Positions 26,640-52,962 of a stretch of 64,000 nt of DNA are shown piece by piece. A model generated the notes under the pieces. It was not told where the DNA came from and ran no database searches. It saw only the letters and a program-made list of their open reading frames with translations. The stretch covers positions 2,924,464 through 2,988,463 of the forward strand of contig CP070761.1 of the NCBI GenBank assembly GCA_020348985.1, in the 5' to 3' direction. Source of the DNA: Candidatus Thorarchaeota archaeon (lineage in GTDB: Archaea > Asgardarchaeota > Thorarchaeia > Thorarchaeales > Thorarchaeaceae). Position 1 is the first letter of the stretch. Each line of letters begins with the position of its first letter. Position numbers and translations under genes: made by a program.

Positions 26640-27803
26640 CTATTCGGATGCCTTCAGGTCTTCCAATTCCTTCTCTTTCTTCTCAAGTTTCTTCTTGAGA
26701 CTCTCAAGGCGTTTGTCAAGTTTATCCGCTTGCTCTTGATAGCTTTCCGTGGGCATTGCACCAGAGGAGTGTCTCTGTTCTATGTGTTCTCGGAGCTGTC
26801 CAACGGACTTCAGTTCCTTCTTCAATGCCTTCACATCATCCTTCAATTCGCCTTCTTTCGATTCTTCGTCCGATTGGAACTGCTTTGCTGGTATCATCAC
26901 CCCAAGCTGACCCTGAGTCTTCTCAGCAAAGTCTTGGAACTGGTCTCTAAGCTTCTCAATGTTGTCCTCCACACTCGACACATGTTTACTGACCTTTTCA
27001 ATGTCCTTCTGGAGGTCAAATACTGCATCAACAAGCCTTCGTAGCGTGGACTCGAACTCCTTCGATACTGATGGCATCGGGGTTTCCTCCTTCTTCTTCT
27101 GCTCCTCAGCCACTTTACTCGGTTTTGGCGTGACAACCTGGTCACCAAGCCATCTGAATGCATTTACAGCGAACGTTTTATTCCCGGGATGCTGAAGACC
27201 TCCGCCTCTCCTGAAGATCTCATAGCTGCCTACACACAGGATTCTACCTTTACCATGCTCAGCTACCGCAATTACGGGTTGCTTTGGCGGGTCCGCAGTG
27301 TCAGAAGTGCAGGCAATCACCGTCGCTTTCTCGGTGACTTTCAGAGTACAGCCTGAAGGAATCAGAAGCTCTCGGACATCATCAGTTATTGGATGAGCGG
27401 TTATATCAGAAATAATCGGCATAGTCGGAAGCCCTGCGTTGTTCCTTTCATCCTTAATTGCAGTGTTCTCAAATGATATCCCGAAGCCTTCAGAGATCTT
27501 GCTCATGTTGTTCATCAGGCCGCGATCCCCTCCAGAGAGTGAGAGAAGGAAGAGGCCGCCCCCGTTCTCCACAAACCGCTTCAGCGTGTCAACCTCGGGC
27601 TGACGTAGCTTGGAGCTATTGGGACAACCAAAGACAAGCACCTTGCACTCTGCTATCTTCTTTGCCAGTATCATATATTCAGAATAGGGCATGGCCTCAA
27701 TGTCGTTATCTTTTAGGAGCTGTGCCAACTCAGAGTATGTCGAGTCCAGCCTTCCACGCTCATTCTGGGTTTGGTCAAAGAAGACTCTCATTCCTGAACT
27801 CAT
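26640..27803 (-). CDS. Cytoplasmic GIFT/IFT52-like domain + coiled coil + steadiness-box-like tail
   Basis: VFFDQTQNE...YSEL...LVFGCP...E...LKRFVENGGGLFLL...GG...N....FGI; GRILCVGS..IF; N..FA.NAFRWL; no signal peptide. Confidence 0.7.
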   Translation of the reverse strand: MSSGMRVFFDQTQNERGRLDSTYSELAQLLKDNDIEAMPYSEYMILAKKIAECKVLVFGCPNSSKLRQPEVDTLKRFVENGGGLFLLSLSGGDRGLMNNMSKISEGFGISFENTAIKDERNNAGLPTMPIISDITAHPITDDVRELLIPSGCTLKVTEKATVIACTSDTADPPKQPVIAVAEHGKGRILCVGSYEIFRRGGGLQHPGNKTFAVNAFRWLGDQVVTPKPSKVAEEQKKKEETPMPSVSKEFESTLRRLVDAVFDLQKDIEKVSKHVSSVEDNIEKLRDQFQDFAEKTQGQLGVMIPAKQFQSDEESKEGELKDDVKALKKELKSVGQLREHIEQRHSSGAMPTESYQEQADKLDKRLESLKKKLEKKEKELEDLKASE

Positions 27804-43137: not shown

Positions 43138-44496
43138 ATGGACTACTACGGAACTGCAGGTATCGACCCTCTAGGAGAGTTAGCTCGAACGCACTTCACA
43201 AACGAGATATCGCCAAGTTTGGATGGAAGATCTGTCACCCTTCTTGGCTGGGTCCACATTCTCCGAGATAAGGGAAAGATCAAGTTCTTGGTCCTCAGAG
43301 ACGAGAAGGGTACGATTCAGATTACAATACCTCAGAAGAAGGTCTCGGAAGAGGTCTTCAAGATCTCGGAAGAATTCAAGCCCGAGTATGCAATAGCTGT
43401 GCGAGGAACGGTCGTAGCCACGCCACAAGCACCATCGGGCGTTGAGATAATTCCTGAGATGTTTAGGATCATCAACAAGGCTCACAGACTTCCAATTGAT
43501 GTTGTGGAAGGAAAAGTAGACATAGATCTCGACACTCGATTGAATCACAGAATTCTCGATCTCAGGAAGCCAACAGTCAATGCGATATTTCGGATTCAAC
43601 ATTCACTAGTTCGTTTTTCCAGAGAGTTCCTTGAGAAAGAGGGTTTTGTCGAGATACACACACCAAAGATAGTCGCCGAGGCCACAGAGGGCGGTGCTAA
43701 TCTATTCGAAATTAAGTACTTCGAAAAGAAGGCATACTTGGCGCAAAGCCCACAGTTCTACAAGCAACTCATGATTCTTGCGGGATTCGGACGAGTCTTC
43801 GAAATCGCTCCCGTCTTTCGAGCAGAGAAGCACAATACCCGCAGACATGTCAACGAGTATACATCATTTGACTATGAGATGGCTTGGATATCTGATGTGG
43901 ATGATGTAATGAAGATGGAGGAGAATATGCTTCACTACTCATTCAAGAAGACCCGAGAACATGTTCCTTCTGAGCTTGAACTGCTAGGAGTGGATCTGAA
44001 GACTCCAAAGGTTCCTTTCAAGAGGATAAAGTATGCTGAAGCTATTGACCTGCTCAACGCCGAGGGTAGGGAGATGGAGGTAACGGATGACCTTGATCCT
44101 GAGAGCGAGCGTCTCTTGGGCAAGATATTCCCTGAGAAGTTCGGAACAGACATGGTGTTTCTGACTCAGTATCCTCTGGAGCTGCGTCCGGCATACACAA
44201 TGCCAAGCATGACTGACGAGGGAATGACTGAGAGCTTTGACCTCACATACAAAGGCATGGAGATCACAACTGGGAGTCAAAGGATTCACATCTATGATCT
44301 TCTTGTGGAACGATTCAAAGCAAAGGGATTCGATCCCGATGCATTTGCATTCTACCTGGATCCGTTCAAGTATGGCGCTCCACCGCACGGAGGTCTCGGA
44401 CTTGGAGTCGAGCGCCTTACTATGCAGCTTTTGAACATTGACAACGTTCGTGAAACAACTCTGTTGCCGAGAGACCGCGACAGACTCACACCATAG
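43138..44496 (+). CDS. aspS: Aspartate--tRNA(Asp/Asn) ligase, archaeal type
   Basis: GWVH..RD.G...F..LRD, TEGGA..F, LAQSPQ.YKQ, FRAE, PPHGG.GLG.ER, PRDR.RL.P. Confidence 0.97.
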
Positions 44497-44615
44497 TCCG
44501 AAGGTGAATGGCACAGTACATAGGTGCACAGAAGAAGGGGACCATGCCATCCAGATTGAACTTCTTGCGCTGATTCGAACGCTTAAATCCAGTATTCGAG
44601 GGCGCCGCTTGCAAG

Positions 44616-44846
44616 GTGAGGATGCCTATGCAAACAAAACTGAAAGTCTCTTTGGGCGGAACATTGATTCTGCTTTCTATCTATTTTGGTGTAGTTGCTT
44701 CAGAGATGATTGCATTTCTTAACACAACAACGACATCAAACCTGGGAATACCATACACAATCGCATTCTTCATGGCTGTAGCGCTGTTATGCGGGTTCAT
44801 CGGGTTCTACATTCTGTCAGACATAATACCTGATAACGGTAAGTGA
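44616..44846 (+). CDS. Small 2-TM membrane protein
   Basis: 76 aa ORF with two hydrophobic helices. Confidence 0.6.
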   Translation: MRMPMQTKLKVSLGGTLILLSIYFGVVASEMIAFLNTTTTSNLGIPYTIAFFMAVALLCGFIGFYILSDIIPDNGK

Positions 44847-44988
44847 GACTCCGATTGATTTACTCTGAGGGCTGCATAGCCCTTCTTCTTTTTGCTGAGA
44901 ATACCTGATAATACTCTGTCTTAAAGCCCGACTTATGGCAAGCTCTACTAGCTAGCTAGAGAGCAAAGTGCAAGTAGGATTTGAGCAC

Positions 44989-45732
44989 ATGATGGAGAGT
45001 CTGCAGTCCGAGCTTTACGCGTCCATCGCCACGCTCGATCAACTGAAGAAACTGTACGACCTCGGTCTTATCGATGTTCGTTCATTCCAGAGGGAGTCAG
45101 AGGCTCTAGTAGCAGACATACGCGGCAGGATTGACGAGCTCAGACGAGGCGGCCTCGACTTTGGAAGGTTCTTGACCAGCGAACGAGTTTCAGAGGCATT
45201 TCCGGATGCAGCAGGATTTCTTGATCTCTATCTTAGAAGCTCAAACCCCTCTCTTCAGGGTCTTACTCGTGAGCAGTACTATGACCACATAGGCTTAGCA
45301 GTACTAGACGTTGCCACAGCAAATGCATCCAAAGGGCTCATGGGTCTCGCAGAGCTGATTGTCGAGGTTGTAAAACGACTTCCAGAACTCAAGACTGTGA
45401 GCTACAATGATGTGATCGAAGCGGTAAACATGGTGTCAAGTCACGGCCTCATTCCGGGAATCCGAACCTTGAAGGGTGGGGTGAAAGTTGTCGAACTAAG
45501 ACCCCTTGAGCTACGAAGAGATCAAGCGGATGTCATCAATCTAGCAGCATCAAAGGGACATACGTCTGTTGAAGAGGTCATGATAGAGCTGAAGTGGTCC
45601 GAGGATCACGCGAGACAGGTGCTTACCAGTCTAGTAGATGCGGGAATGGCTGTGGCCGATGTTAGGTTCTCAACTGGTGGAAGATACTGGTTCCCCGGTC
45701 TCAGATCAAGAGATCGTAAACAGATGCGTTAG
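44989..45732 (+). CDS. ESCRT-II Vps22/Vps36 (EAP30) protein with N-terminal Vps28-N-like domain
   Basis: YYD.IG..V..V...GL..L.EL, VS.ND...AV, P.EL..DQ..V..LA..KG, LKW....ARQVL..L...G.A..D, RYWFPGL. Confidence 0.88.
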   Translation: MMESLQSELYASIATLDQLKKLYDLGLIDVRSFQRESEALVADIRGRIDELRRGGLDFGRFLTSERVSEAFPDAAGFLDLYLRSSNPSLQGLTREQYYDHIGLAVLDVATANASKGLMGLAELIVEVVKRLPELKTVSYNDVIEAVNMVSSHGLIPGIRTLKGGVKVVELRPLELRRDQADVINLAASKGHTSVEEVMIELKWSEDHARQVLTSLVDAGMAVADVRFSTGGRYWFPGLRSRDRKQMR

Positions 45733-45736
45733 CGAA

Positions 45737-46462
45737 CTAGACTAGAATTCGAATAGCTCCCTTCTTCTTGTCAACCCATTCTGCTGCATTGTCTCGAACC
45801 ATCAATGACAAGACTTCATGCAAGTCCGCTTCAGGAAGCGTGGCAAACTCTTCCTGGGTCTCCTGTATGACCAAGGACTTGACATCAAGTCGACGGTTTC
45901 CCGTTTTTAGAGCCCATTGATACATCAGATCTGCCCATTCCTCGAGCGGGCGCCAATAAACCCGAAGCTGTTTCTGTTTCTTATCGAGCCATTCTGCAAC
46001 TTCCTTTTCGATCAGAACTTCTCCGAATAAACGGAATGCATCGATCTTCCCCAGGATGTCGCAGAAGGGGTCTTCATCAATGATCATTGAAAGAGACAGC
46101 ACATGAAGACCTTCGGATTTCATCCACTCCAAAAGGAAATCTGACCACTCCTCAGCCCATAGCCGACGCTCTTTCTCGCTCTTCGGTATGTGATACATCC
46201 ATTCAGATTCCTCTGCCGTGCCCCATTTAGGTAGAAGCACCTCTTGGACCGTAGTCTGGGTACTAGGTTCTGCTACCGACTCTTTGGCTTCGACTTCAAC
46301 GTGGCTTACTTCTGCTGTCTGCAGAATCTCTTCGTGGGCATCAGACTCTACAGTGACAGGTGTATGGGGCGACTCTGCAATTGAGGAGCTTTCACTTTGG
46401 TCTACTACCTTCTCAGCTTCCTTTTCCTTCTTCTTCTCTCTTCTGCGCTCTCTTACACCCAA
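45737..46462 (-). CDS. vps25: ESCRT-II subunit Vps25
   Basis: W..FLL.W, PF, AEWLDK......VYWRPLEEWA..MYQWA, EF..L....L...L..M.....AE; disordered N-terminal extension; TTG start. Confidence 0.88.
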   Translation of the reverse strand: MGVRERRREKKKEKEAEKVVDQSESSSIAESPHTPVTVESDAHEEILQTAEVSHVEVEAKESVAEPSTQTTVQEVLLPKWGTAEESEWMYHIPKSEKERRLWAEEWSDFLLEWMKSEGLHVLSLSMIIDEDPFCDILGKIDAFRLFGEVLIEKEVAEWLDKKQKQLRVYWRPLEEWADLMYQWALKTGNRRLDVKSLVIQETQEEFATLPEADLHEVLSLMVRDNAAEWVDKKKGAIRILV

Positions 46463-46465
46463 CCC

Positions 46466-47695
46466 TCAGGAACCCTCCGCCCAGTCCATATATCTGCCAA
46501 CATCCTCTGGTGACGTCGCTGGTCTAATGTTGTCAATTGCTTTTACGAAGTCAGAACGTGTGACTGGTCTTAGATCAGTTATCATATCTTCCGTGTCAAT
46601 GCGCCCTGTTCGCTGAAGGTCTCTTATTGCCTCCATAGCAGCTTCTCTACAGACTACGCTTATGTCTCTCCCACTGTATCCCTCACTGAGGTCAGCAAGT
46701 TCATCGTAGTCTACATCACTTGCCACATCTATCTCTTCCATATGGATTCGGAAGATTTCGACTCTCGCTGTCTTGTCGGGCAGGGGGACGTGAATCTTCT
46801 TCTCGAATCGGGACCGCAGCGCGAAATCAAGTTCCCAAGGCAAGTTGGTGGCACCGATTAGAGTTATTCTGTCATCTTCAGATGATCCAAGACCCTCAAG
46901 CTCCGTCAGTAATTGGGTCTTGAGTCTTCGCTCACCACCGACATCCTCACCAGACCTGGCCACACCCACAGAGTCTAGCTCATCAATGAAGATGATGGAG
47001 GGCTGGTTCTTCCTGGCCTCGCTGAAAAGCGTGCTCACGAGCTTCTCTGACTCACCAAGCCACTTGCTCACAATGTTCGCTGCAGATACGCTGAAGAAAG
47101 TCGCGTCAACCTCTCCTGCTACTGCTTTGGCAACTAGGGTCTTTCCACAACCTGCTGGTCCGTAGAGGAGAATCCCCTTCCACGGCTGCCTAGCTTTTCC
47201 CTTGAACAGTTCTGGATGCTTGAGCGGAGCCGCAATGGCTTCGTAGACTGCTTGTTTTGCCTCTTCCAAACCTGCTACATCATCCATGCGTACAGTGGGC
47301 CTTTCTGTAAGAATCGTGTCCGTAATAGTCTCATGCAGTCTCAGGCTCTCCTCGTCCGCCTCCGACTCATTGGCGCGACTATCCATTGGCTGTGTGGAGC
47401 TAGGTGTATCGCTTATTGGACTTGGCGGCACTCTCAGACCATCACGAGGTTTTCCGGTCTTCTTCTTAATGCCAGACAGGTATCGGACTCTATCAACGCA
47501 CTCTTGTGCCCTGTCGAAGTAGAATTTTCGCACAGCCGGCAATGAGGCCGACTTCGATAATTTGATCAGAACTTTGCTTGCAGTAAGGTAATGCTGACAA
47601 GCCTCTTTTCTTCGGCCGCGTCGATCTAGGTCGACCGCCTTGTCCAGCAGCTTCTTGAGACCAGCATCTACCCTGTCGTTGCCTGCACCTGCCAT
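46466..47695 (-). CDS. vps4: Vps4-like AAA ATPase with N-terminal MIT domain
   Basis: MIT (KAVDLD..G...EA...Y), DVAGLEEAK, WKGILLYGPAGCGKT, SKWLGESEKLV, IFIDELD, ATNLPWELD. Confidence 0.93.
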   Translation of the reverse strand: MAGAGNDRVDAGLKKLLDKAVDLDRRGRRKEACQHYLTASKVLIKLSKSASLPAVRKFYFDRAQECVDRVRYLSGIKKKTGKPRDGLRVPPSPISDTPSSTQPMDSRANESEADEESLRLHETITDTILTERPTVRMDDVAGLEEAKQAVYEAIAAPLKHPELFKGKARQPWKGILLYGPAGCGKTLVAKAVAGEVDATFFSVSAANIVSKWLGESEKLVSTLFSEARKNQPSIIFIDELDSVGVARSGEDVGGERRLKTQLLTELEGLGSSEDDRITLIGATNLPWELDFALRSRFEKKIHVPLPDKTARVEIFRIHMEEIDVASDVDYDELADLSEGYSGRDISVVCREAAMEAIRDLQRTGRIDTEDMITDLRPVTRSDFVKAIDNIRPATSPEDVGRYMDWAEGS

Positions 47696-47898
47696 TCGAG
47701 TTCGATTGTCCCAAAGAGCTGTTTCGTTATGAATGTCTGTGTTGTAGGATTATGACCACTAGGTGGAGCGCTAGACCGGACAACTGTCTTACTCCGCATA
47801 AATACACAATAACGGATGACTGCGAAAGTGCTGCGAAGGTTTAAACGCACACTTCTTCACATCACTCAAGAACGAGTCTTTCCAAACCGGTGATTCAG

Positions 47899-48510
47899 TT
47901 GGGCATTTTCAAGAGAGCCTTTTCATGGGGCCGTAAGAAACCAGACATTGGAGAAATCAAGAGTCAACTTAGAATACTCTCCAAGCAACTCGAACGCCAG
48001 CGAGGGAAGCTTGAGAAAGAGGTTCGAGACACCAAGTCCCGGGCGGTTCAGGCCCGAAAGGACGGCCATTCTGAAGCATTTCAGACATACGCAACAGAGA
48101 TGGTCCGATTTCGTAGATATGCCTTAGCAGTGGACAAGTCTCGTCTGAACATTTTGAAGATACTCGCCCATGTAACACGAGCTCAGACTACTGCGAAAGC
48201 GTCAATGGCAATGGAAGAAGTGTCCAAGATTCTGAGCATCCTTGGTGATGCTACAGACACAACAAAAGTCATCGAGAACGTAGATGATATTGCACGTAGG
48301 CTAGAGGAGTTTGAGATTGAAAGTGGGATCACTGCCGACGCATTCGACTCAGTGTCGACTGAAGTGTCAGCAGATGATGTAGCCGCTGCAATTAGAGAGA
48401 TTGATGCTGCTGCTGGAATTGCAGAGTCCGACGTACCTGTCCGCCCTACCACTGAGGCAGAAGAACTCGAGGAAGCAATCAAATCACTTGAACGTGAGCT
48501 TGGTGTCTAG
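47899..48510 (+). CDS. ESCRT-III (Snf7 family), Vps2/24/46-like class
   Basis: N-terminal amphipathic GIFKRAFSW, basic helical hairpin L....KQLERQ..KLEKE...K.....A.K.G......YA...VR, acidic C-half, MIM1-like ELEEAIKSLERE; TTG 47899 after GGTGA (alternative GTG 47890). Confidence 0.9.
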   Translation: MGIFKRAFSWGRKKPDIGEIKSQLRILSKQLERQRGKLEKEVRDTKSRAVQARKDGHSEAFQTYATEMVRFRRYALAVDKSRLNILKILAHVTRAQTTAKASMAMEEVSKILSILGDATDTTKVIENVDDIARRLEEFEIESGITADAFDSVSTEVSADDVAAAIREIDAAAGIAESDVPVRPTTEAEELEEAIKSLERELGV

Positions 48511-50076
48511 TTACCAGCGAGATCGATGACCGTTACGGGATAATCTTGAGATTTCCTCTCTTGTTTGATATGAGTCTCGCATTAGTCCACGGTATCGTCG
48601 GATGAAGTCTTCTGGTTCGAGTCGTCCATTCCTCAGAAGATGTACAGTCTCTTTGATTGCACTGTCAAGTGCAGACATGTTCTTTCTGAGGACACTGACC
48701 TCAGGACTTCCAGGTTCAGTGTAAGTCTGATAAGTTCCTGCCGCCACTCGGTCTACCGTTCGCTCTAGTCGATCACGAAAGCCTGGAGTCCAAGGATCTC
48801 TTCGGTCTTGACTCTGTTCGTATCGATAGTCAGGTCTGGCTCCATAAGTGGGCGGCTGCGAGTAATAATGCGGACTACCCTGCTGGAGTGCAGGGCTGTG
48901 CGAAAGCAATGAATACACAAGGCCCTCAATCTTGAGCCTTACTTCGCTGACCGAGATTTCGCTCTGCTCGAGCTTCCTGACACGCTTGAGATCGGATTGG
49001 ACATATCTCTCGAATCTTCTAGCAATCTCTATGAAGTCTGGAAGTACCTTCTTGGTCTGTTCGCTGCATGATATCTTGATACAACCCTGCTTCAGGGTTA
49101 GAACCAGTCTCTTTCTCAGCCTACCATCTTCTTGAAGGCTCTTCAAGTAGATAAGTGGGAAGTCAAACACAATCTCCGTCTTCTTGCGAACACGCCCGGT
49201 CTCAGCAATGAACACAATCCTTGTATTGGTGATATAGAGTGTCCCCTCTGCTCTGTCGTTTTTGAGGAAATCGCTGCCAACAATTCGAATAGACGGCAAT
49301 GCACAGACTGGAAGCTCGCCCACAGATAGCTCCGCGATTTCATAGAATCCTGAGAACTCATTTCGGTAATAGTTCAATCCCTCAAGTTGTCTCTCCAAAT
49401 CCTTGAGACTCAACCAAATCGGCTCAAGTGCCTCCTCCACGTTTCTCCTGTATTGATTGCTCAACTCGGTGATGCGATTTGTGACTCCCTCGATGAATGG
49501 AAACTGTGCACATGTCCATGAATTATAGTCTATGAGGCCTTTAGTTTCGGCAACCATCCTCTTTGCTACTATCTCTGCCTGATTTGCAACTCGGCTCTTG
49601 ACAGCCTCAATCTCGTTTTGACATTCCTCTACTCTATCTTCAAGCCACCTGTAGTGAAGGAAGTTCGCCATTCTGAGTGAAACGAGTAGGCGTTTGGAGC
49701 TTGTCAGCCGATTATTCGCTTCCCTAAGTCTCGTGTGACCGTATTGTATTCCCATTACTGCATGACGCATTTCTTGAGCCAGTTGCCTCCTTCTCTCTTC
49801 GATGAGAACGGTTCTTCTCGAATGACACTTTGGACACATCTCTTCTGTTCTCTTCCCCGCGCTTAGCTTCTCTGATTCACACTCAGGGCACTCTTCAAAT
49901 CGTTCCCCCGGAGTTGGTGTGCCCAGCATGTGATGACAGTCACTACACACGTAGTAAACACTTGATCGTGATTCGAGGCACTCCAGACATAACGTCACAC
50001 CACAATCTTCGCACATGTGAGTTGCGCGATTGCGGTCACACATCTTACAAGCAGGGATAGAAGGCGGCTCAATCAT
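48511..50076 (-). CDS. B-box/Zn-ribbon + coiled coil + GLUE/GRAM-like PH + steadiness box (ESCRT-I-like subunit)
   Basis: Six CxxC pairs; long coiled coil; GTLYITNTRIVF; C-terminal ALDSAI......LRNG.L....F....R.L.R..YQ.R. Confidence 0.72.
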   Translation of the reverse strand: MIEPPSIPACKMCDRNRATHMCEDCGVTLCLECLESRSSVYYVCSDCHHMLGTPTPGERFEECPECESEKLSAGKRTEEMCPKCHSRRTVLIEERRRQLAQEMRHAVMGIQYGHTRLREANNRLTSSKRLLVSLRMANFLHYRWLEDRVEECQNEIEAVKSRVANQAEIVAKRMVAETKGLIDYNSWTCAQFPFIEGVTNRITELSNQYRRNVEEALEPIWLSLKDLERQLEGLNYYRNEFSGFYEIAELSVGELPVCALPSIRIVGSDFLKNDRAEGTLYITNTRIVFIAETGRVRKKTEIVFDFPLIYLKSLQEDGRLRKRLVLTLKQGCIKISCSEQTKKVLPDFIEIARRFERYVQSDLKRVRKLEQSEISVSEVRLKIEGLVYSLLSHSPALQQGSPHYYSQPPTYGARPDYRYEQSQDRRDPWTPGFRDRLERTVDRVAAGTYQTYTEPGSPEVSVLRKNMSALDSAIKETVHLLRNGRLEPEDFIRRYRGLMRDSYQTREEISRLSRNGHRSRW

Positions 50077-50225: not shown

Positions 50226-51611
50226 ATGGAAGATTTAGCACAGGCCGCAATTGAGGCCACACTTGGTGCAGGTGCAAATTTCGCAGATGTGAGAATCGAG
50301 AACACGAAGACAACAATTATTGAGATTAGCGACGGTGTTACCAAACGGTCAATGGCTTCCTTCCTCAAAGGTGCAGGTCTCCGCGCTTTCGTGGACGGGG
50401 CTTGGGCATTCGCTCAGACAACCAATCTAACTCCTTCAGGAATGAAGGAAACGGGTGACTCAGTAGCGAGACTAGCGTTGGCGACGCGGGAACAAGTAAC
50501 CGAGAAGTTTGAGATCGATGGTCCTACGTTCAAAGATCGTGTGAAGATCAAAGTACAGAAGCCTTTCGCAGACATTTCGGTAGAAGAAAAGATAGGCTAC
50601 GTCAAGATGATAGACGATCAAGCTCGAGACTTCGATAAACGAATCTTCAACACTAGAACAATCTATGGCGACCTCTGGACAGAGCTCCACATTGCTAACT
50701 CGCTTGGAACATCAGTGTGGGAAGAATACTCGCTGCCCCGTATCATTTCTTCCACAACTGCAAAGGAGGGCACAAGCAGACAACGTGGTTTCCGCTCCAT
50801 AGGGACAAATGGTGGCTTTGAGGAATTCGAGACCAAAGCCGCGCAAAGCATTGGAGAAGAATCCGCCAGACTTGTCATCGACCTGCTGTCCTCAGTTGCT
50901 GCAAAAGGCGACACATACGATGTCATCATGGATCCAATTCTCAACGGTGTAATGGTGCACGAAGCGTTTGGCCATGCTAGTGAGGCCGACAATTGGCCTG
51001 CACATGCTACGGTTTTGGAGGACAAGGTAGGCGAGGAAGTGGGCCCCGAACACCTTAGTCTGAGTGATGATCCCACTCTTGAAGGAAGGCGTGGAACATT
51101 TTCCTACGACTGGGAGGGGACCAAGGCAACCAAACGGGAGCTTGTGAAGGATGGTATTCTGACGGAGTTACTGCATAGTCTGGAGACCTCATCGCGACTT
51201 GACATGGCTCCAAACGGCTCTGCACGAAGTCAATCATTCATGCATCCTCCGCTGCCCAGAATGAGCAATACTCACATGGAACCGCGCGACTGGAGTCTGG
51301 AGGAGCTTTTCCAAGATACGAAGGAAGGCATTCTCTTGTGTGGGTTCAACTACGGTTACACTGAACCCTCTAAGGGTCAATTCATGTTCCAAGCGAACTA
51401 TGGATATCTAATCGAGAAAGGAGAGAAGACCCAAATGGTCCGAGATGTCTCCTTGGCAGGTCAGATACTTGAGGTTCTCCCCAAGATAGATGCCATCGGG
51501 AAGGGCTTCGAAATGGATGCGGGAACCTGTGGCAAATCAGGACAGGGAGTTCCAGTTATGTCTGGTGGACCACATGCAAGGATACGATCCATGCCAGTAG
51601 GAGGCCTCTGA
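50226..51611 (+). CDS. tldD: TldD metalloprotease
   Basis: FADVR.E, G.G.R....G.W.FA, HEAFGH..EAD, DDPT, D.EG, PRMSNT, CGKSGQ.VPV..GGP. Confidence 0.95.
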   Translation: MEDLAQAAIEATLGAGANFADVRIENTKTTIIEISDGVTKRSMASFLKGAGLRAFVDGAWAFAQTTNLTPSGMKETGDSVARLALATREQVTEKFEIDGPTFKDRVKIKVQKPFADISVEEKIGYVKMIDDQARDFDKRIFNTRTIYGDLWTELHIANSLGTSVWEEYSLPRIISSTTAKEGTSRQRGFRSIGTNGGFEEFETKAAQSIGEESARLVIDLLSSVAAKGDTYDVIMDPILNGVMVHEAFGHASEADNWPAHATVLEDKVGEEVGPEHLSLSDDPTLEGRRGTFSYDWEGTKATKRELVKDGILTELLHSLETSSRLDMAPNGSARSQSFMHPPLPRMSNTHMEPRDWSLEELFQDTKEGILLCGFNYGYTEPSKGQFMFQANYGYLIEKGEKTQMVRDVSLAGQILEVLPKIDAIGKGFEMDAGTCGKSGQGVPVMSGGPHARIRSMPVGGL

Positions 51612-51612
51612 C

Positions 51613-52962
51613 ATGAGTGATACTCTTCTCGTAATAGCTGCAAAGGCAGTGAAGTTGGCAGAAAAGTTGGGTGCAAGCCAAGCAGAGGCCTACGTGGCGC
51701 AATCCAGGTCGTTTGCAATCGATGTAGAGAATAGCGCGATAAAGAGTGCAAGTGAGAAGCGGGACGCCGGACTCGGAATTCGATCAGTTGTGGATAAGAG
51801 GATTGGATTTGCCTACGTTACTACAATCGAAGAGAAAGACATTCCCAACGTCGCTGAACAGTCTGTGAGTCTGGCAAAAGCATCAATCCCGGATCCTGAC
51901 TTCGTTTCGTTTCCTGAAGCCAGCAAGTCATATCCACGAATCAAGGACATGACGGATTCTGAGATCGCTAACCTTAGCTCAGAAGATGCAGCAAGTCTAG
52001 TAGTTAGAACTGTAGAAGCAACAACGGAGGCACTTGGAGAGATTCAGGCTGCCATCGAGGCACAACTCTCGGCCAATTCTGGTCGCAGGGCCATTGCTAA
52101 CTCACTTGGTGTCGAAGGAACATTCGAATCAACTTCGAGCTTCCTTTACAGTTATCCGACCATTAAGACTGAAGATGATCAGACATCATCATTTGAATAC
52201 CAGATATCCCGCAAGCTCAATGAGATAGATCCCGAATGGATTGGCGTGGGTGCGGCTAAGAATACTCTCGCTTCTCTTGGAGGGCGAACAATAGACCCTG
52301 GCGAAATGCCCGTAATTCTCAGTCCACTAGCTGTGGGTACTGTTCTGGGAAATGGGTTCGCGGGCGCGGTAAATGCTGAAGAGGTCCAGTATGGTCGGTC
52401 ATACATATCCGATGCATTCGGCGAAGAAATCGCGTCAGAGGAACTAGAAATCATTGATGATTCTCTTCTGCGTGCAGGTCTTGGATCACGCCCCTTTGAT
52501 GCAGAAGGATACCCATCCAGCACAACTGAGGTCCTGTCCAAAGGTATTCTCAAGAACCTTCTTCACAATTCGTATACTGCAAACAAAGACGGTGTGGAGA
52601 ATACCGGGAATGCCAGTCGACCATCCTACGCTGGAATCCCCTCTATTGCTCCGTCCAATTTTGTGATTACTCCTGGCAGTGGGACCTTAGACGACTTGAT
52701 TTCAGAAGTCAGGAAGGGAGTTCTTGTAAGAAACACATACGATCGTCCAAACATGACAACTGGTGACCTAAGTGCAATGGTGGCTGAGGGGCACTACATT
52801 GAGAATGGAGAGGTTTGCTGTCCCGTCAGAAGTACTCTTGTCGGTATCAATATGCGCGAGCTCCTCAAGCGTATTCTCCGCATCGGTGATGACACTAGAG
52901 TGACTACGAGTGTGGTGTCACCATCCATAGTTATTGAGAGTGCGAAAATCACATCTGGATGA
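51613..52962 (+). CDS. pmbA: TldE/PmbA protein
   Basis: GLGIR...DKR.GFA, SRPFDAEG, NTGNA.R, TGD.S; no HExxxH motif. Confidence 0.93.
   Translation: MSDTLLVIAAKAVKLAEKLGASQAEAYVAQSRSFAIDVENSAIKSASEKRDAGLGIRSVVDKRIGFAYVTTIEEKDIPNVAEQSVSLAKASIPDPDFVSFPEASKSYPRIKDMTDSEIANLSSEDAASLVVRTVEATTEALGEIQAAIEAQLSANSGRRAIANSLGVEGTFESTSSFLYSYPTIKTEDDQTSSFEYQISRKLNEIDPEWIGVGAAKNTLASLGGRTIDPGEMPVILSPLAVGTVLGNGFAGAVNAEEVQYGRSYISDAFGEEIASEELEIIDDSLLRAGLGSRPFDAEGYPSSTTEVLSKGILKNLLHNSYTANKDGVENTGNASRPSYAGIPSIAPSNFVITPGSGTLDDLISEVRKGVLVRNTYDRPNMTTGDLSAMVAEGHYIENGEVCCPVRSTLVGINMRELLKRILRIGDDTRVTTSVVSPSIVIESAKITSG

Follow-up and report, generated by a model that had tools for sequence, protein, structure and literature searches.

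The window, a stretch of 64,000 nucleotides, belongs to a Thorarchaeote genome represented by one contig of 3.16 Mb, whose completeness (CheckM-type) is 86% despite the single contig. Positions 44989-50076 hold five genes on the strands +, -, -, + and -, each with Pfam support, and their coordinates, strands and profile matches confirmed the first-pass annotation, which had placed a five-gene ESCRT locus between aspS and tldD/pmbA. The features are given below.

43138-44496: aspS, flanking gene (Pfam)
44616-44846: 76-aa ORF with two hydrophobic segments, previously called a small membrane gene
44989..45732, plus strand: Vps28N–Vps22 fusion, 247 aa from the ATG at 44989 (a longer GTG frame starts at 44968)
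44989..45228, plus strand: Vps28 N-terminal (steadiness-box hairpin) domain, residues 1-80 of the fusion (phmmer, HMM, AF2)
45268..45708, plus strand: tandem winged-helix (EAP30/Vps22) core, residues ~94-240 of the fusion (Pfam EAP30, AF2)
45737..46462, minus strand: Vps25 (ESCRT-II; Pfam ESCRT-II)
46466..47695, minus strand: Vps4 AAA+ ATPase with MIT, AAA, lid and Vps4_C (Pfam)
47696..47889, no strand: divergent intergenic region between vps4 (minus) and ESCRT-IIIA (plus), presumed from gene coordinates and sequence to be their shared promoter region
47890..48510, plus strand: ESCRT-IIIA subunit, Vps2/24/46-like and CHMP2/1/3-like (Pfam Snf7, PDB matches)
48511..50076, minus strand: Znr_CC_PH_SB protein, 521 aa (AF2, conserved Cys, ortholog ThorAB25_08990)
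48523..48705, minus strand: Vps23/TSG101-type steadiness-box hairpin, residues 458-518 (family profile; AF2 helices H458-482 and H488-518)
49018..49311, minus strand: PH/GRAM-like domain, residues 256-353 (AF2, seven strands and a C-terminal helix; weak Pfam GRAM)
49354..49803, minus strand: three long helices (stalk/coiled coil), residues 92-241 (AF2 H92-136, H143-177 and H189-241, pLDDT >90)
49825..50049, minus strand: three zinc ribbons/B-box-like module, residues 10-84 (conserved Cys, profiles)
50226-52962: two TldD/PmbA genes on the opposite flank (Pfam)

The order aspS–fusion–vps25–vps4–ESCRT-IIIA–Znr_CC_PH_SB–tldD/E is retained in Thorarchaeota (Thor) genomes, and no conservation of the 76-aa ORF was found at the corresponding site in relatives. 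The locus is the canonical Thorarchaeota ESCRT gene cluster, orthologous to ThorAB25_08990-09030 of Thorarchaeota AB_25, where the genes bear the same five labels, SB, ESCRT3A, Vps4, Vps25 and Vps22, and where orthology is clear from the starts of the printed sequences (Hatano et al. 2022, Nat Commun, PMC9192718). AB_25 is a different Thor genome, and homologs are ~60-94% identical. In that study the AB_25 proteins were examined by yeast two-hybrid.

The N-terminus of gene 1 had been read as Vps28-N and an ESCRT-I/II gene fusion had been proposed; both ideas were borne out, beyond single-sequence Pfam, by phmmer, HMM and family-profile comparisons. By phmmer (E 1e-11 to 4e-13), residues 5-80 corresponded to positions ~22-97 in stand-alone Vps28 proteins of other Asgard lineages. 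These proteins themselves pass Pfam VPS28 at 58-64 bits, and in four genomes from three other Asgard families their genes directly precede vps22. A whole-genome search with an Asgard Vps28-N HMM returned the fusion ORF as sole match (3.3e-15), and the AF2 model showed the domain as a helical hairpin (H2-24 and H30-53, pLDDT 84-95 over both helices). The fusion family profile gave marginal matches to yeast Vps28 (2f6m_B, 2f66_B, 2p22_B and 2caz_B; E 0.011-0.017), and Pfam VPS28, present in 83 of the 121 sampled Asgard genomes, matched in none of the 17 Thor-family genomes at E 0.001. Since these direct yeast and Pfam matches are marginal or absent, the homology of the Thor N-domain to Vps28 rests on the Asgard Vps28 intermediates; the sister-family fusion passes both Pfam VPS28 (26.9 bits against a cutoff of 24.5) and EAP30. 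Judged by sequence comparison, the N-terminal ~80 residues are homologous to Vps28-N, and a gene fusion links parts of ESCRT-I and ESCRT-II.

Pfam EAP30 matched the fusion (E 1.8e-13) over residues 99-231 only, corresponding to profile positions 83-218, whereas an unfused Asgard Vps22 covers positions 2-216; the fusion thus lacks the N-terminal helices native to Vps22. Against the PDB, human SNF8/Vps22 was matched at 4.9e-16 and Vps36 at 0.23, and the best Foldseek matches were the Vps22 chains 2zme_A, 3cuq_A and 1u5t_A. HMM searches of the whole genome found neither a Vps28 C-terminal domain (best E 0.13) nor a Vps22 N-helical domain (best E 0.24). The fusion is orthologous to ThorAB25_09030 ('Vps22'); its homologs in the 245-275 aa range are without exception labelled Thorarchaeota, and the database copy begins at the ATG at 44989. 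Vps22 proteins of other lineages align to it only past about residue 54-95 and keep the native EAP30 N-terminus.

Among the genomes sampled, the Vps28-N fusion was restricted to the Thor order (families f1 and f2). It is intact in its own genome, in 16 of the 17 sampled Thor-family genomes and in the sister-family genome, which makes a frameshifted or misassembled gene pair unlikely; in the remaining Thor-family genome (G087) a contig end falls within the cluster. Genome G023 carries vps4 and vps25 in forward orientation followed by vps22 and vps28 in reverse, an arrangement that matches the Thor one apart from the fusion of the last two genes. The most likely origin, parsimonious and with no intermediate seen, would be a single deletion, in frame, that spanned neighbouring vps28 and vps22 genes of the same orientation in an ancestor of the Thor order.

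The fifth gene encodes a Znr_CC_PH_SB protein, probably a Vps23-like subunit of ESCRT-I that lacks UEV. Its AF2 model (mean pLDDT 86.9) has the order zinc ribbons, long helices, PH domain and steadiness box, while single-sequence Pfam searches returned only weak B-box and GRAM/PH matches (E 0.013 each). The B-box match, ANCHR-like, lies in the zinc module, whose profile also matched RING, PHD, FYVE and B-box chains. Twelve cysteines are conserved across the Asgard homologs, ten of them invariant (C22, C25, C30, C33, C44, C47, C63, C66, C81 and C84) and the other two, C10 and C13, present in 90% of rows or more. Foldseek matched the PH/GRAM-like domain to chains with PH folds, among them the Lam6 PH-like domain and the GLUE domain of human EAP45/Vps36 (2hth_B, TMt 0.61, E 5.6e-4). 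The family profile matched yeast Vps23/Stp22 (2p22_A, 1.5e-5; 2f66_A, 3.3e-4; 2caz_A, 6.6e-4) and human TSG101 (6vme_B, 1.5e-3), all at profile positions ~450-510, and the Pfam Vps23_core match, sub-threshold at E 0.009, was yet the best of its kind genome-wide. The steadiness box proposed for this protein was thereby confirmed as Vps23-type, and the PH domain lies on the same chain, in line with the idea of a GLUE-like module on an ESCRT-I subunit. The expected synteny in relatives also held, the gene lying, in eight further loci from across the Asgard families, 0-8 kb from ESCRT-III, Vps4 or Vps25. Of the 121 Asgard genomes sampled, 81 encode the protein, most of them from families that possess ubiquitin; it is not a Thor-specific reshuffling.

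Vps25 matched Pfam ESCRT-II (1.2e-13, residues 96-190), is the sole such gene in the genome and is orthologous to ThorAB25_09020; it follows vps4 directly in the same orientation, and its acidic N-terminal tail of ~75 aa is, by eye, low-complexity in appearance. Vps4 showed Pfam matches to MIT (2.8e-5), AAA (1.2e-39), AAA_lid_3 (1.4e-14) and Vps4_C (2e-6). The in-cluster ESCRT-III (Pfam Snf7, E 1.5e-11) is of the IIIA (CHMP2/1/3-like) type: its top PDB matches were CHMP2A, CHMP1B, CHMP1A, a CdvB 'Vps2-like' protein and CHMP3, the PDB search giving no match to Snf7 or Heimdall ESCRT-IIIB, and its ortholog ThorAB25_09000 is labelled ESCRT3A (Hatano et al. 2022, PMC9192718). A Snf7/Vps20-like ESCRT-IIIB gene is located 1.1 Mb from the cluster, and yeast two-hybrid results in the same paper gave ESCRT-IIIB as the partner of Vps25. 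Contrary to what had been supposed, the locus is not self-contained, since this subunit and a Vps22 paralog of 775 aa have their genes at other sites in the genome.

Profile searches of the whole single contig found no ubiquitin, E2 or UEV; JAB gave a sub-threshold match far from the locus, and two ThiF-type E1-like genes are likewise distant from it. The absence first noticed in the neighbourhood thus extends to the genome. Ubiquitin was found in none of the 17 sampled genomes of the family (88-99% complete) and, by the same search, in 88 of the 121 Asgard genomes, a profile-search result that a highly divergent ubiquitin-like modifier could escape. The ThiF-type family occurred in 14 of 14 prokaryotic control genomes. 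The lack of ubiquitin in Thorarchaeota had been noted before, in 30 Thor genomes (Hatano et al. 2022, PMC9192718). As no ubiquitin, E2 or UEV was found in the genome and no ubiquitin in the family, recognition of cargo or site is presumably ubiquitin-independent.

Gene content, domain homologies, the fusion and synteny, as observed here, are those of the canonical Thor ESCRT cluster, and we consider this reading, with its Vps28N–Vps22 fusion and the chain proposed below, very probable. Znr_CC_PH_SB would act as the Vps23-like subunit, meeting membrane and/or cargo through its PH domain and zinc ribbons, and, as happens in the ESCRT-I headpiece of eukaryotes, its C-terminal steadiness box would dock on the fusion's Vps28N hairpin. 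The Vps22 core, covalently attached to Vps28N, would bind Vps25, which would nucleate the distant Snf7-like ESCRT-IIIB; the latter would recruit the in-cluster ESCRT-IIIA, and Vps4 would disassemble the polymer. We infer these protein contacts, including that between steadiness box and Vps28N, together with the assembly order and function. The interpretation given in the first-pass annotation stands as regards the fusion, the PH/steadiness-box adaptor, synteny and the lack of ubiquitin, and falls as regards self-containment and novelty.

The eukaryotic ESCRT-I headpiece (Vps23/Vps28/Vps37; 2F66, 2CAZ, 2P22) also combines a Vps23-type steadiness box with a Vps28 N-domain, and eukaryotic ESCRT shares the PH/GLUE-like fold and the downstream Vps22 core, Vps25, ESCRT-III and Vps4, whereas the Thor system is without UEV, Vps37, Vps36, the Vps28 C-terminal domain and ubiquitin. 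Its ESCRT-I/II link is covalent instead of running from the Vps28 C-terminal domain to Vps36 GLUE/NZF, and it is the Vps23-like subunit, not a Vps36, that carries the PH domain. The UEV-Vps23-Vps28 protein of Heimdallarchaeota AB_125 (Hatano et al. 2022) likewise unites in one polypeptide ESCRT subunits that are separate in eukaryotes, but both subunits merged there belong to ESCRT-I, with UEV and the Vps28 C-terminal domain retained, whereas the Thor fusion joins ESCRT-I to ESCRT-II and has dropped the latter domain.

The N-terminal hairpin might instead be a structural or dimerisation stand-in for the lost Vps22 N-helices that does not recruit Znr_CC_PH_SB, the latter working on its own, for instance regulating ESCRT-III/Vps4 while bound to the membrane, and not as an ESCRT-I subunit. 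Since the N-terminal helices of eukaryotic Vps22 pack against Vps36 (3CUQ, 1U5T), a replacement hairpin could serve dimerisation; moreover, Znr_CC_PH_SB usually lies beside ESCRT-III and Vps4, not vps22 or vps28, and its zinc module has a weak similarity to the B-box of ANCHR/ZFYVE19. Self-interaction of Thor Vps22, reported in Hatano et al. 2022 (PMC9192718), points the same way. We regard this explanation as unlikely, because the specific Vps23/TSG101-type steadiness box and the specific Vps28-N are partners in the solved yeast headpiece and yeast two-hybrid assays in the same study (PMC9192718) suggested that the 'freestanding steadiness box protein' may bind Vps28 in Loki and Thor. Among Asgard lineages, UEV-Vps23 is said to be absent from Loki- and Thorarchaeia, which leaves Znr_CC_PH_SB as the sole Vps23-like candidate.

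The NZF fingers of yeast Vps36 read ubiquitin, and the strictly conserved zinc ribbons of Znr_CC_PH_SB might read an undetected divergent modifier (SAMP/Urm1-like or other), on which the pathway would then still depend. Two ThiF/MoeB-type E1-like genes, the estimated genome completeness of 86% and the ease with which very divergent small proteins elude profile searches would agree with this, but we judge it very improbable: a search that detects ubiquitin in 88 of 121 Asgard genomes found no ubiquitin-family match in this genome or 17 relatives, the genome has no E2 or UEV and only sub-threshold JAB, ThiF-type enzymes are housekeeping in all 14 control prokaryotes, and a published search likewise found no ubiquitin in 30 Thor genomes (Hatano et al. 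2022, PMC9192718). It also seems distinctly unlikely that the cluster serves chiefly in cell division, as a Cdv-like machine whose ESCRT-I/II-like parts target ESCRT-III to the division site. TACK archaea divide by ESCRT-III, Vps4 and CdvA, to which the steadiness box is related (PMC10936438), and without ubiquitin an obvious cargo tag is missing; however, the PH domain and the multi-subunit ESCRT-I/II architecture resemble the sorting branch.

For the fusion-based assembly chain that we favour, the components had in large part been described. Makarova et al. 2024 (mBio, PMC10936438; Table S3) assigned residues 1-70 of the Thor Vps22 KXH75178.1 to PF03997, the Vps28 N-terminal/SB domain (HHpred 99%), and defined both the Asgard 'Vps22#' (cog.002769), an SB-fused Vps22, and the Znr_CC_PH_SB family (cog.011556), a likely ESCRT-I component ancestral in Asgard; the domain architectures are the same as here. 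The SB fusion was given there for the Vps22 family generally, whereas in our sample it occurs in the Thor order only, the other Asgard lineages having kept vps28 as a gene of its own and Vps22 with its native N-terminus. In Hatano et al. 2022 (PMC9192718), gene 1 is plain 'Vps22' and gene 5 the steadiness box protein, the Vps28-N origin not being dissected. As the architecture, the cluster and the Thor lack of ubiquitin were already published (PMC10936438, PMC9192718), the novelty implied earlier does not hold; the small additions made here would be the limitation of the fusion to the Thor order among the sampled genomes and a single-deletion origin that would explain it.

The ESCRT locus proposed in the first-pass annotation was examined with an ORF list and Pfam searches, which returned the same genes in the same order, on the same strands and between the same flanks. 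The window covers G000:C1:2924464-2988463 of the host genome, a single contig of 3.16 Mb, and public records label homologs of its proteins as Candidatus Thorarchaeota. The cluster is arranged as follows (window positions).

43138-44496: aspS, the flank after which the five-gene cluster follows
44989-45732, + strand: EAP30-family gene, referred to here as the fusion (ORF list; the Pfam match covers only residues 99-231 in the numbering of the longer, 254-aa GTG frame)
45737-46462, - strand: Vps25 (ORF list and Pfam)
46466-47695, - strand: Vps4 with MIT, AAA, lid and Vps4_C domains (ORF list and Pfam)
47890-48510, + strand: Snf7-family ESCRT-III (ORF list and Pfam)
48511-50076, - strand: 521-aa protein, gene 5 (weak B-box and weak GRAM/PH matches only in Pfam)
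50226-52962: tldD/pmbA pair, the other flank

The feature is real and was rightly read, and it represents an ordinary Thorarchaeal ESCRT cluster; the arrangement from aspS to tldE is kept whole across Thor genomes.

The C-terminal two thirds of the fusion protein are Vps22. The tandem winged-helix core matched Pfam EAP30 with an E value of 1.8e-13 and, among PDB structures, was found to be closer to Vps22 (human SNF8, 4.9e-16) than to Vps36 (0.23), while the three best Foldseek matches of its AlphaFold model (pLDDT 84.9) were all Vps22 chains. The EAP30 profile was covered only from position 83 to 218 in the Thor fusion versus 2 to 216 in unfused Asgard Vps22, indicating that the native N-terminal helical domain (EAP30 positions 1-82 approximately), which is missing from the fusion, has been replaced by the Vps28 N-domain. 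An HMM built from Asgard Vps22 N-termini returned nothing significant anywhere in the genome (best E 0.24).

The identity of the replacing segment was settled through Asgard intermediates and family profiles, as a single-sequence Pfam search of residues 1-100 gave no Vps28 match. When the 247-aa protein was searched against 121 Asgard genomes, full-length matches were confined to its own family (f1, the Thor family) and to the sister family f2 of the same order; the Vps22 of every other family aligned only from about residue 54-95 onward. Residues 5-80 instead matched the start of separate ORFs of about 222 aa located directly upstream of vps22, and these ORFs are bona fide Vps28 proteins (58-64 bits over the whole Pfam VPS28 profile). 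The same residues were aligned by phmmer to residues 22-97 approximately of Asgard Vps28, with E values of 1e-11 to 4e-13, and an HMM of the Asgard Vps28 N-domain had the fusion as its sole match in the genome (E 3.3e-15). The sister-family fusion passes Pfam EAP30 and Pfam VPS28 alike (26.9 bits for VPS28, cutoff 24.5), and the fusion family profile matches yeast structures of the Vps28 N-domain with E values of 0.011-0.017. In the alignment of the fusion with Vps28, ELY..IATLD…GLID…FP.AA is the common pattern, and the junction falls near residues 85-95. The N-terminal steadiness-box/core domain of Vps28 is thus present, and phmmer, HMMs, Pfam and alignment together confirmed gene 1 as a true Vps28N–Vps22 fusion, in agreement with the proposal that ESCRT-I and ESCRT-II are joined here by gene fusion.

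The C-terminal four-helix bundle of Vps28 binds ESCRT-II. This domain (CTD) is absent from the fusion by alignment, and its HMM detected none in the genome (best E 0.13). Pfam VPS28 was found in 83 of the 121 sampled Asgard genomes, yet in 0 of the 17 of the Thor family. Other Vps28 candidates in the host genome were discarded. A highly charged coiled-coil protein of 412 aa (G000:C1:2335977-2337215, + strand) gave weak, sub-threshold Pfam VPS28 matches (E 0.005-0.012), which are probably a coiled-coil artefact; at E 0.012 the match spans profile positions 10-185 of 188, and the protein could alternatively be one of the multidomain steadiness-box-containing proteins, such as Thor BAR-SB, described by Makarova et al. 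2024. Two coiled-coil proteins selected by eye as similar to the Vps28 CTD, and a 77-aa protein selected by eye as similar to a steadiness box, showed neither VPS28 nor Vps23_core signal in Pfam searches up to E 1.

The AF2 model of gene 5 (pLDDT 86.9) displayed the following succession of elements.

Residues 10-91: beta-rich zinc ribbons
Residues 92-241: three long helices
Residues 256-353: PH fold
Residues 396-431: disordered linker
Residues 458-518: terminal hairpin

The protein contains 12 conserved cysteines in three CxxC…CxxC units, 10 of them invariant and 2 present in at least 90% of the aligned Asgard homologs. At positions 450-510 approximately, the family profile matched yeast Vps23/Stp22 (2p22_A at 1.5e-5, together with 2f66_A and 2caz_A) and human TSG101 (1.5e-3) within their steadiness boxes. 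With a single sequence, Pfam Vps23_core stayed below threshold at the C-terminus (E 0.009), though this was the best Vps23_core match genome-wide. Profile and AF2 model therefore indicate a C-terminal steadiness box following a helical stalk and, judged from these matches, specifically of the Vps23/TSG101 type. The N-terminus of Vps23/TSG101 is the ubiquitin-binding UEV domain, which had no match anywhere in the genome; since the N-terminus of gene 5 consists of zinc ribbons instead, the protein is Vps23-like and not a Vps23 ortholog.

Conserved cysteines, AF2 domain order, PH fold, steadiness box, distribution and synteny were compared with the published definition of the Znr_CC_PH_SB family, i.e., an Asgard-specific, ESCRT-linked protein with three zinc ribbons, a coiled coil, a PH domain and a steadiness box in this order, and gene 5 corresponds to it. 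The family occurs in 81 of 121 sampled Asgard genomes, including 17 of 17 in the Thor family and many ubiquitin-bearing families. The synteny of the fifth gene with ESCRT genes holds in relatives, both in Thor genomes and in eight non-Thor loci, where it adjoins ESCRT-III, Vps4 or Vps25 or lies within about 8 kb of them. Foldseek analysis of the whole model returned mostly DH–PH proteins, matching on long helices and PH, thus confirming the PH fold without demonstrating a specific GLUE relationship; human EAP45 GLUE (2hth_B, TMt 0.61) was retrieved among many other PH domains, not uniquely. In the GLUE domain of Vps36, a split PH domain carries inserted NZF fingers, its ligands being PI3P, ubiquitin and the Vps28 CTD. 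In the AF2 model of gene 5, no insertion into the PH domain is visible.

Vps25 matched the winged-helix pair of Pfam ESCRT-II (PF05871) with E 1.2e-13 and 51.9 bits (cutoff 27), and is single-copy in the genome. In Vps4, one AAA+ module (AAA and AAA_lid_3) and Vps4_C, the oligomerisation helix, were above cutoff, and the MIT domain scored 24.6 bits, under the cutoff of 30, at E 2.8e-5. The ESCRT-III protein of the cluster matched Pfam Snf7, its best PDB matches being CHMP2A, CHMP1B, CHMP1A and CHMP3, and on sequence it is assigned to ESCRT-IIIA (Vps2/24/46 class), nearer to CHMP2/1/3 than to Snf7/Vps20. Two related genes were found outside the window.

G000:C1:1864635-1865321, + strand: second Snf7-family gene, 228 aa, 1.1 Mb from the cluster
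G000:C1:1914304-1916631, + strand: Vps22 paralog, 775 aa, beside an Arf-like GTPase gene

The remote Snf7-family gene is flanked by genes for an inositol monophosphatase and a HAD hydrolase, and the best PDB matches of its product were Heimdall ESCRT-IIIB (9ftl, 8.5e-9) and Snf7. It is of the ESCRT-IIIB (Vps20/32/60, Snf7-like) type, and the description of the locus as self-contained cannot be maintained. Contacts between Vps25 and ESCRT-IIIB are reported by Hatano et al. 2022 (PMC9192718), so that the suggested chain from Vps25 to ESCRT-III requires this unlinked gene. The Vps22-like part of the paralog, a pair of winged helices, occupies roughly its last 125 residues (1.4e-18 by phmmer with the fusion), and the protein is kept at about 780-860 aa in other Thor genomes. 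The weak genome-wide EAP30 matches outside the cluster comprised this real paralog, a ribosomal S25-like winged helix, which was dismissed, and a match at 2995151. At window 26775-27017 (- strand; G000:C1:2951238-2951480), a 387-aa open frame contains a weak Snf7-profile match (E 0.035), which is probably spurious and due to coiled-coil sequence.

The reported absence of ubiquitin, E2 and UEV genes near the cluster extends to the whole genome. The Pfam ubiquitin profile had no match on the single contig, in any of 17 other Thor-family genomes (88-99% complete) or in one sister-family genome, while the same search found ubiquitin in 88 of the 121 Asgard genomes as a positive control. UQ_con (E2) and UEV were likewise without a match in the host genome, JAB gave a sub-threshold match only, and two ThiF-type genes were detected, a family present in 14 of 14 control prokaryotes. 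The families without ubiquitin (f1, f2 and the other Asgard families f6, f11 and f17, with f20 at 1 genome of 7) also lack full-length Vps28, a pattern rather than a statistical test since these families represent few independent events.

Complex prediction on fusion residues 1-95 and gene 5 residues 440-521 gave an ipSAE of 0.56 (runs 0.60, 0.54 and 0.56) against a best value of 0.00 for three controls, and was graded "weak support"; partner pLDDT did not fall below 70, and the runs shared 97% or more of their contacts. As the homologous yeast Vps23–Vps28 headpiece has been solved, any pass may reflect memory, and the prediction is weighed neither for nor against docking. Of 80 solved complexes used in the calibration, 58 reached the pass mark, and of 110 mismatched pairs 2 did; scores of 0.60 or less occurred in only 7 of the 80 solved complexes and in both passing mismatches. 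In the mechanism we propose, the PH domain and zinc ribbons of Znr_CC_PH_SB would make contact with membrane, cargo or both, and the Vps23-type steadiness box of this protein would dock onto the hairpin that Vps28N contributes to the fusion. The fused Vps22 core would bind Vps25, which would nucleate the remote ESCRT-IIIB, and ESCRT-IIIA and Vps4 would then complete and recycle the polymer. The third hairpin of the headpiece could come from a Vps22 homodimer or from a coiled-coil dimer of the adaptor.

In G023, a genome of another Asgard family (f13), vps4 and vps25 (forward) are followed by vps22 and vps28 (reverse). Apart from the fusion of the last two genes, Thor genomes show the same order. 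The simplest origin of the fusion would therefore be one in-frame deletion that took out the Vps28 CTD together with the Vps22 N-terminus, and the genome-wide loss of both segments fits one deletion across adjacent genes. To our knowledge, other Asgard archaea lack Vps36. A wider reading, which we consider possible but just short of probable, is that a single in-frame deletion of about 0.65 kb removed exactly the Vps28 CTD bundle and the Vps22 N-helices, that elsewhere among Asgard archaea these two segments constitute the non-covalent interface between ESCRT-I and ESCRT-II, and that the strictly conserved zinc ribbons of Znr_CC_PH_SB and its PH domain mark, in ubiquitin-less lineages, ESCRT recruitment independent of ubiquitin. 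If so, the Thor deletion would be a natural "Rosetta-stone" marker suggesting that the two lost domains form that interface, and ubiquitin-independent recruitment might predate the ubiquitin link.

Much of this is already in print. Makarova et al. 2024 (PMC10936438) described Asgard Vps22 (cog.002769) fused to a steadiness box, their Table S3 assigning residues 1-70 of the Thorarchaeota Vps22 KXH75178.1 to PF03997 (VPS28 N-terminal domain/SB) with an HHpred probability of 99%, and defined Znr_CC_PH_SB (cog.011556), in their view a likely ancestral component of ESCRT-I, with a PH domain expected to bind membranes. Hatano et al. 2022 (PMC9192718) list ThorAB25_08990 (SB), 09000 (ESCRT3A), 09010 (Vps4), 09020 (Vps25) and 09030 (Vps22); the sequences printed there are clear orthologs of the five proteins of the window, 09000 being the counterpart of our ESCRT-IIIA, and were tested by yeast two-hybrid. 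The same authors report self-interaction of Thor Vps22, raise a possible interaction between Vps28 and a "freestanding steadiness box protein" in Loki and Thor, and note repeatedly that Thorarchaeota are seemingly without ubiquitin. A 2023 preprint describes UEV-Vps23 as missing from Loki- and Thorarchaeia. Since cluster, fusion and lack of ubiquitin are all published, the idea in the first-pass annotation is correct but not new.

The present analysis adds that, among the 121 genomes sampled, only the Thor order has the Vps28-N fusion, a separate vps28 and a native Vps22 N-terminus occurring elsewhere; this restriction and the likely deletion origin are modest refinements. Further additions are the genome-wide lack of both the Vps28 CTD and the Vps22 N-helices, and the typing of the gene 5 steadiness box as Vps23/TSG101. 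The analysis also supplies a further example of the cluster, from a genome in one contig, and confirms that ESCRT-IIIB is unlinked from it. Asgard ESCRT systems offer the best available window on the assembly of the eukaryotic ubiquitin-ESCRT sorting pathway, and Thorarchaeota provide a natural experiment: ESCRT-I, II and III persist there without ubiquitin, and the ESCRT-I/II bridge is hard-wired by fusion, so that the cluster would serve well as a minimal system to reconstitute.

Finally, some differences between loci were observed. The "small membrane gene" next to aspS is a 76-aa ORF (44616-44846) with two hydrophobic segments; relatives have no counterpart at the same position, nor any tblastx match in their loci. 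Between aspS and the fusion gene lie about 490 nt here (44497-44988); three further Thor genomes have a gap of only about 40-150 nt. In G112, a sister-family genome, the cluster is split, with aspS, fusion, vps25 and vps4 on one contig and Znr_CC_PH_SB with two adjoining ESCRT-III genes on a separate one. G023 (G023:C1:337000-353000) carries ubiquitin genes at 348115-348318 and 349724-349897, about 3-5 kb from vps28, which flank the ESCRT cluster on the side held by aspS in Thor genomes; the Thor cluster looks like a G023-like arrangement minus the ubiquitin side.
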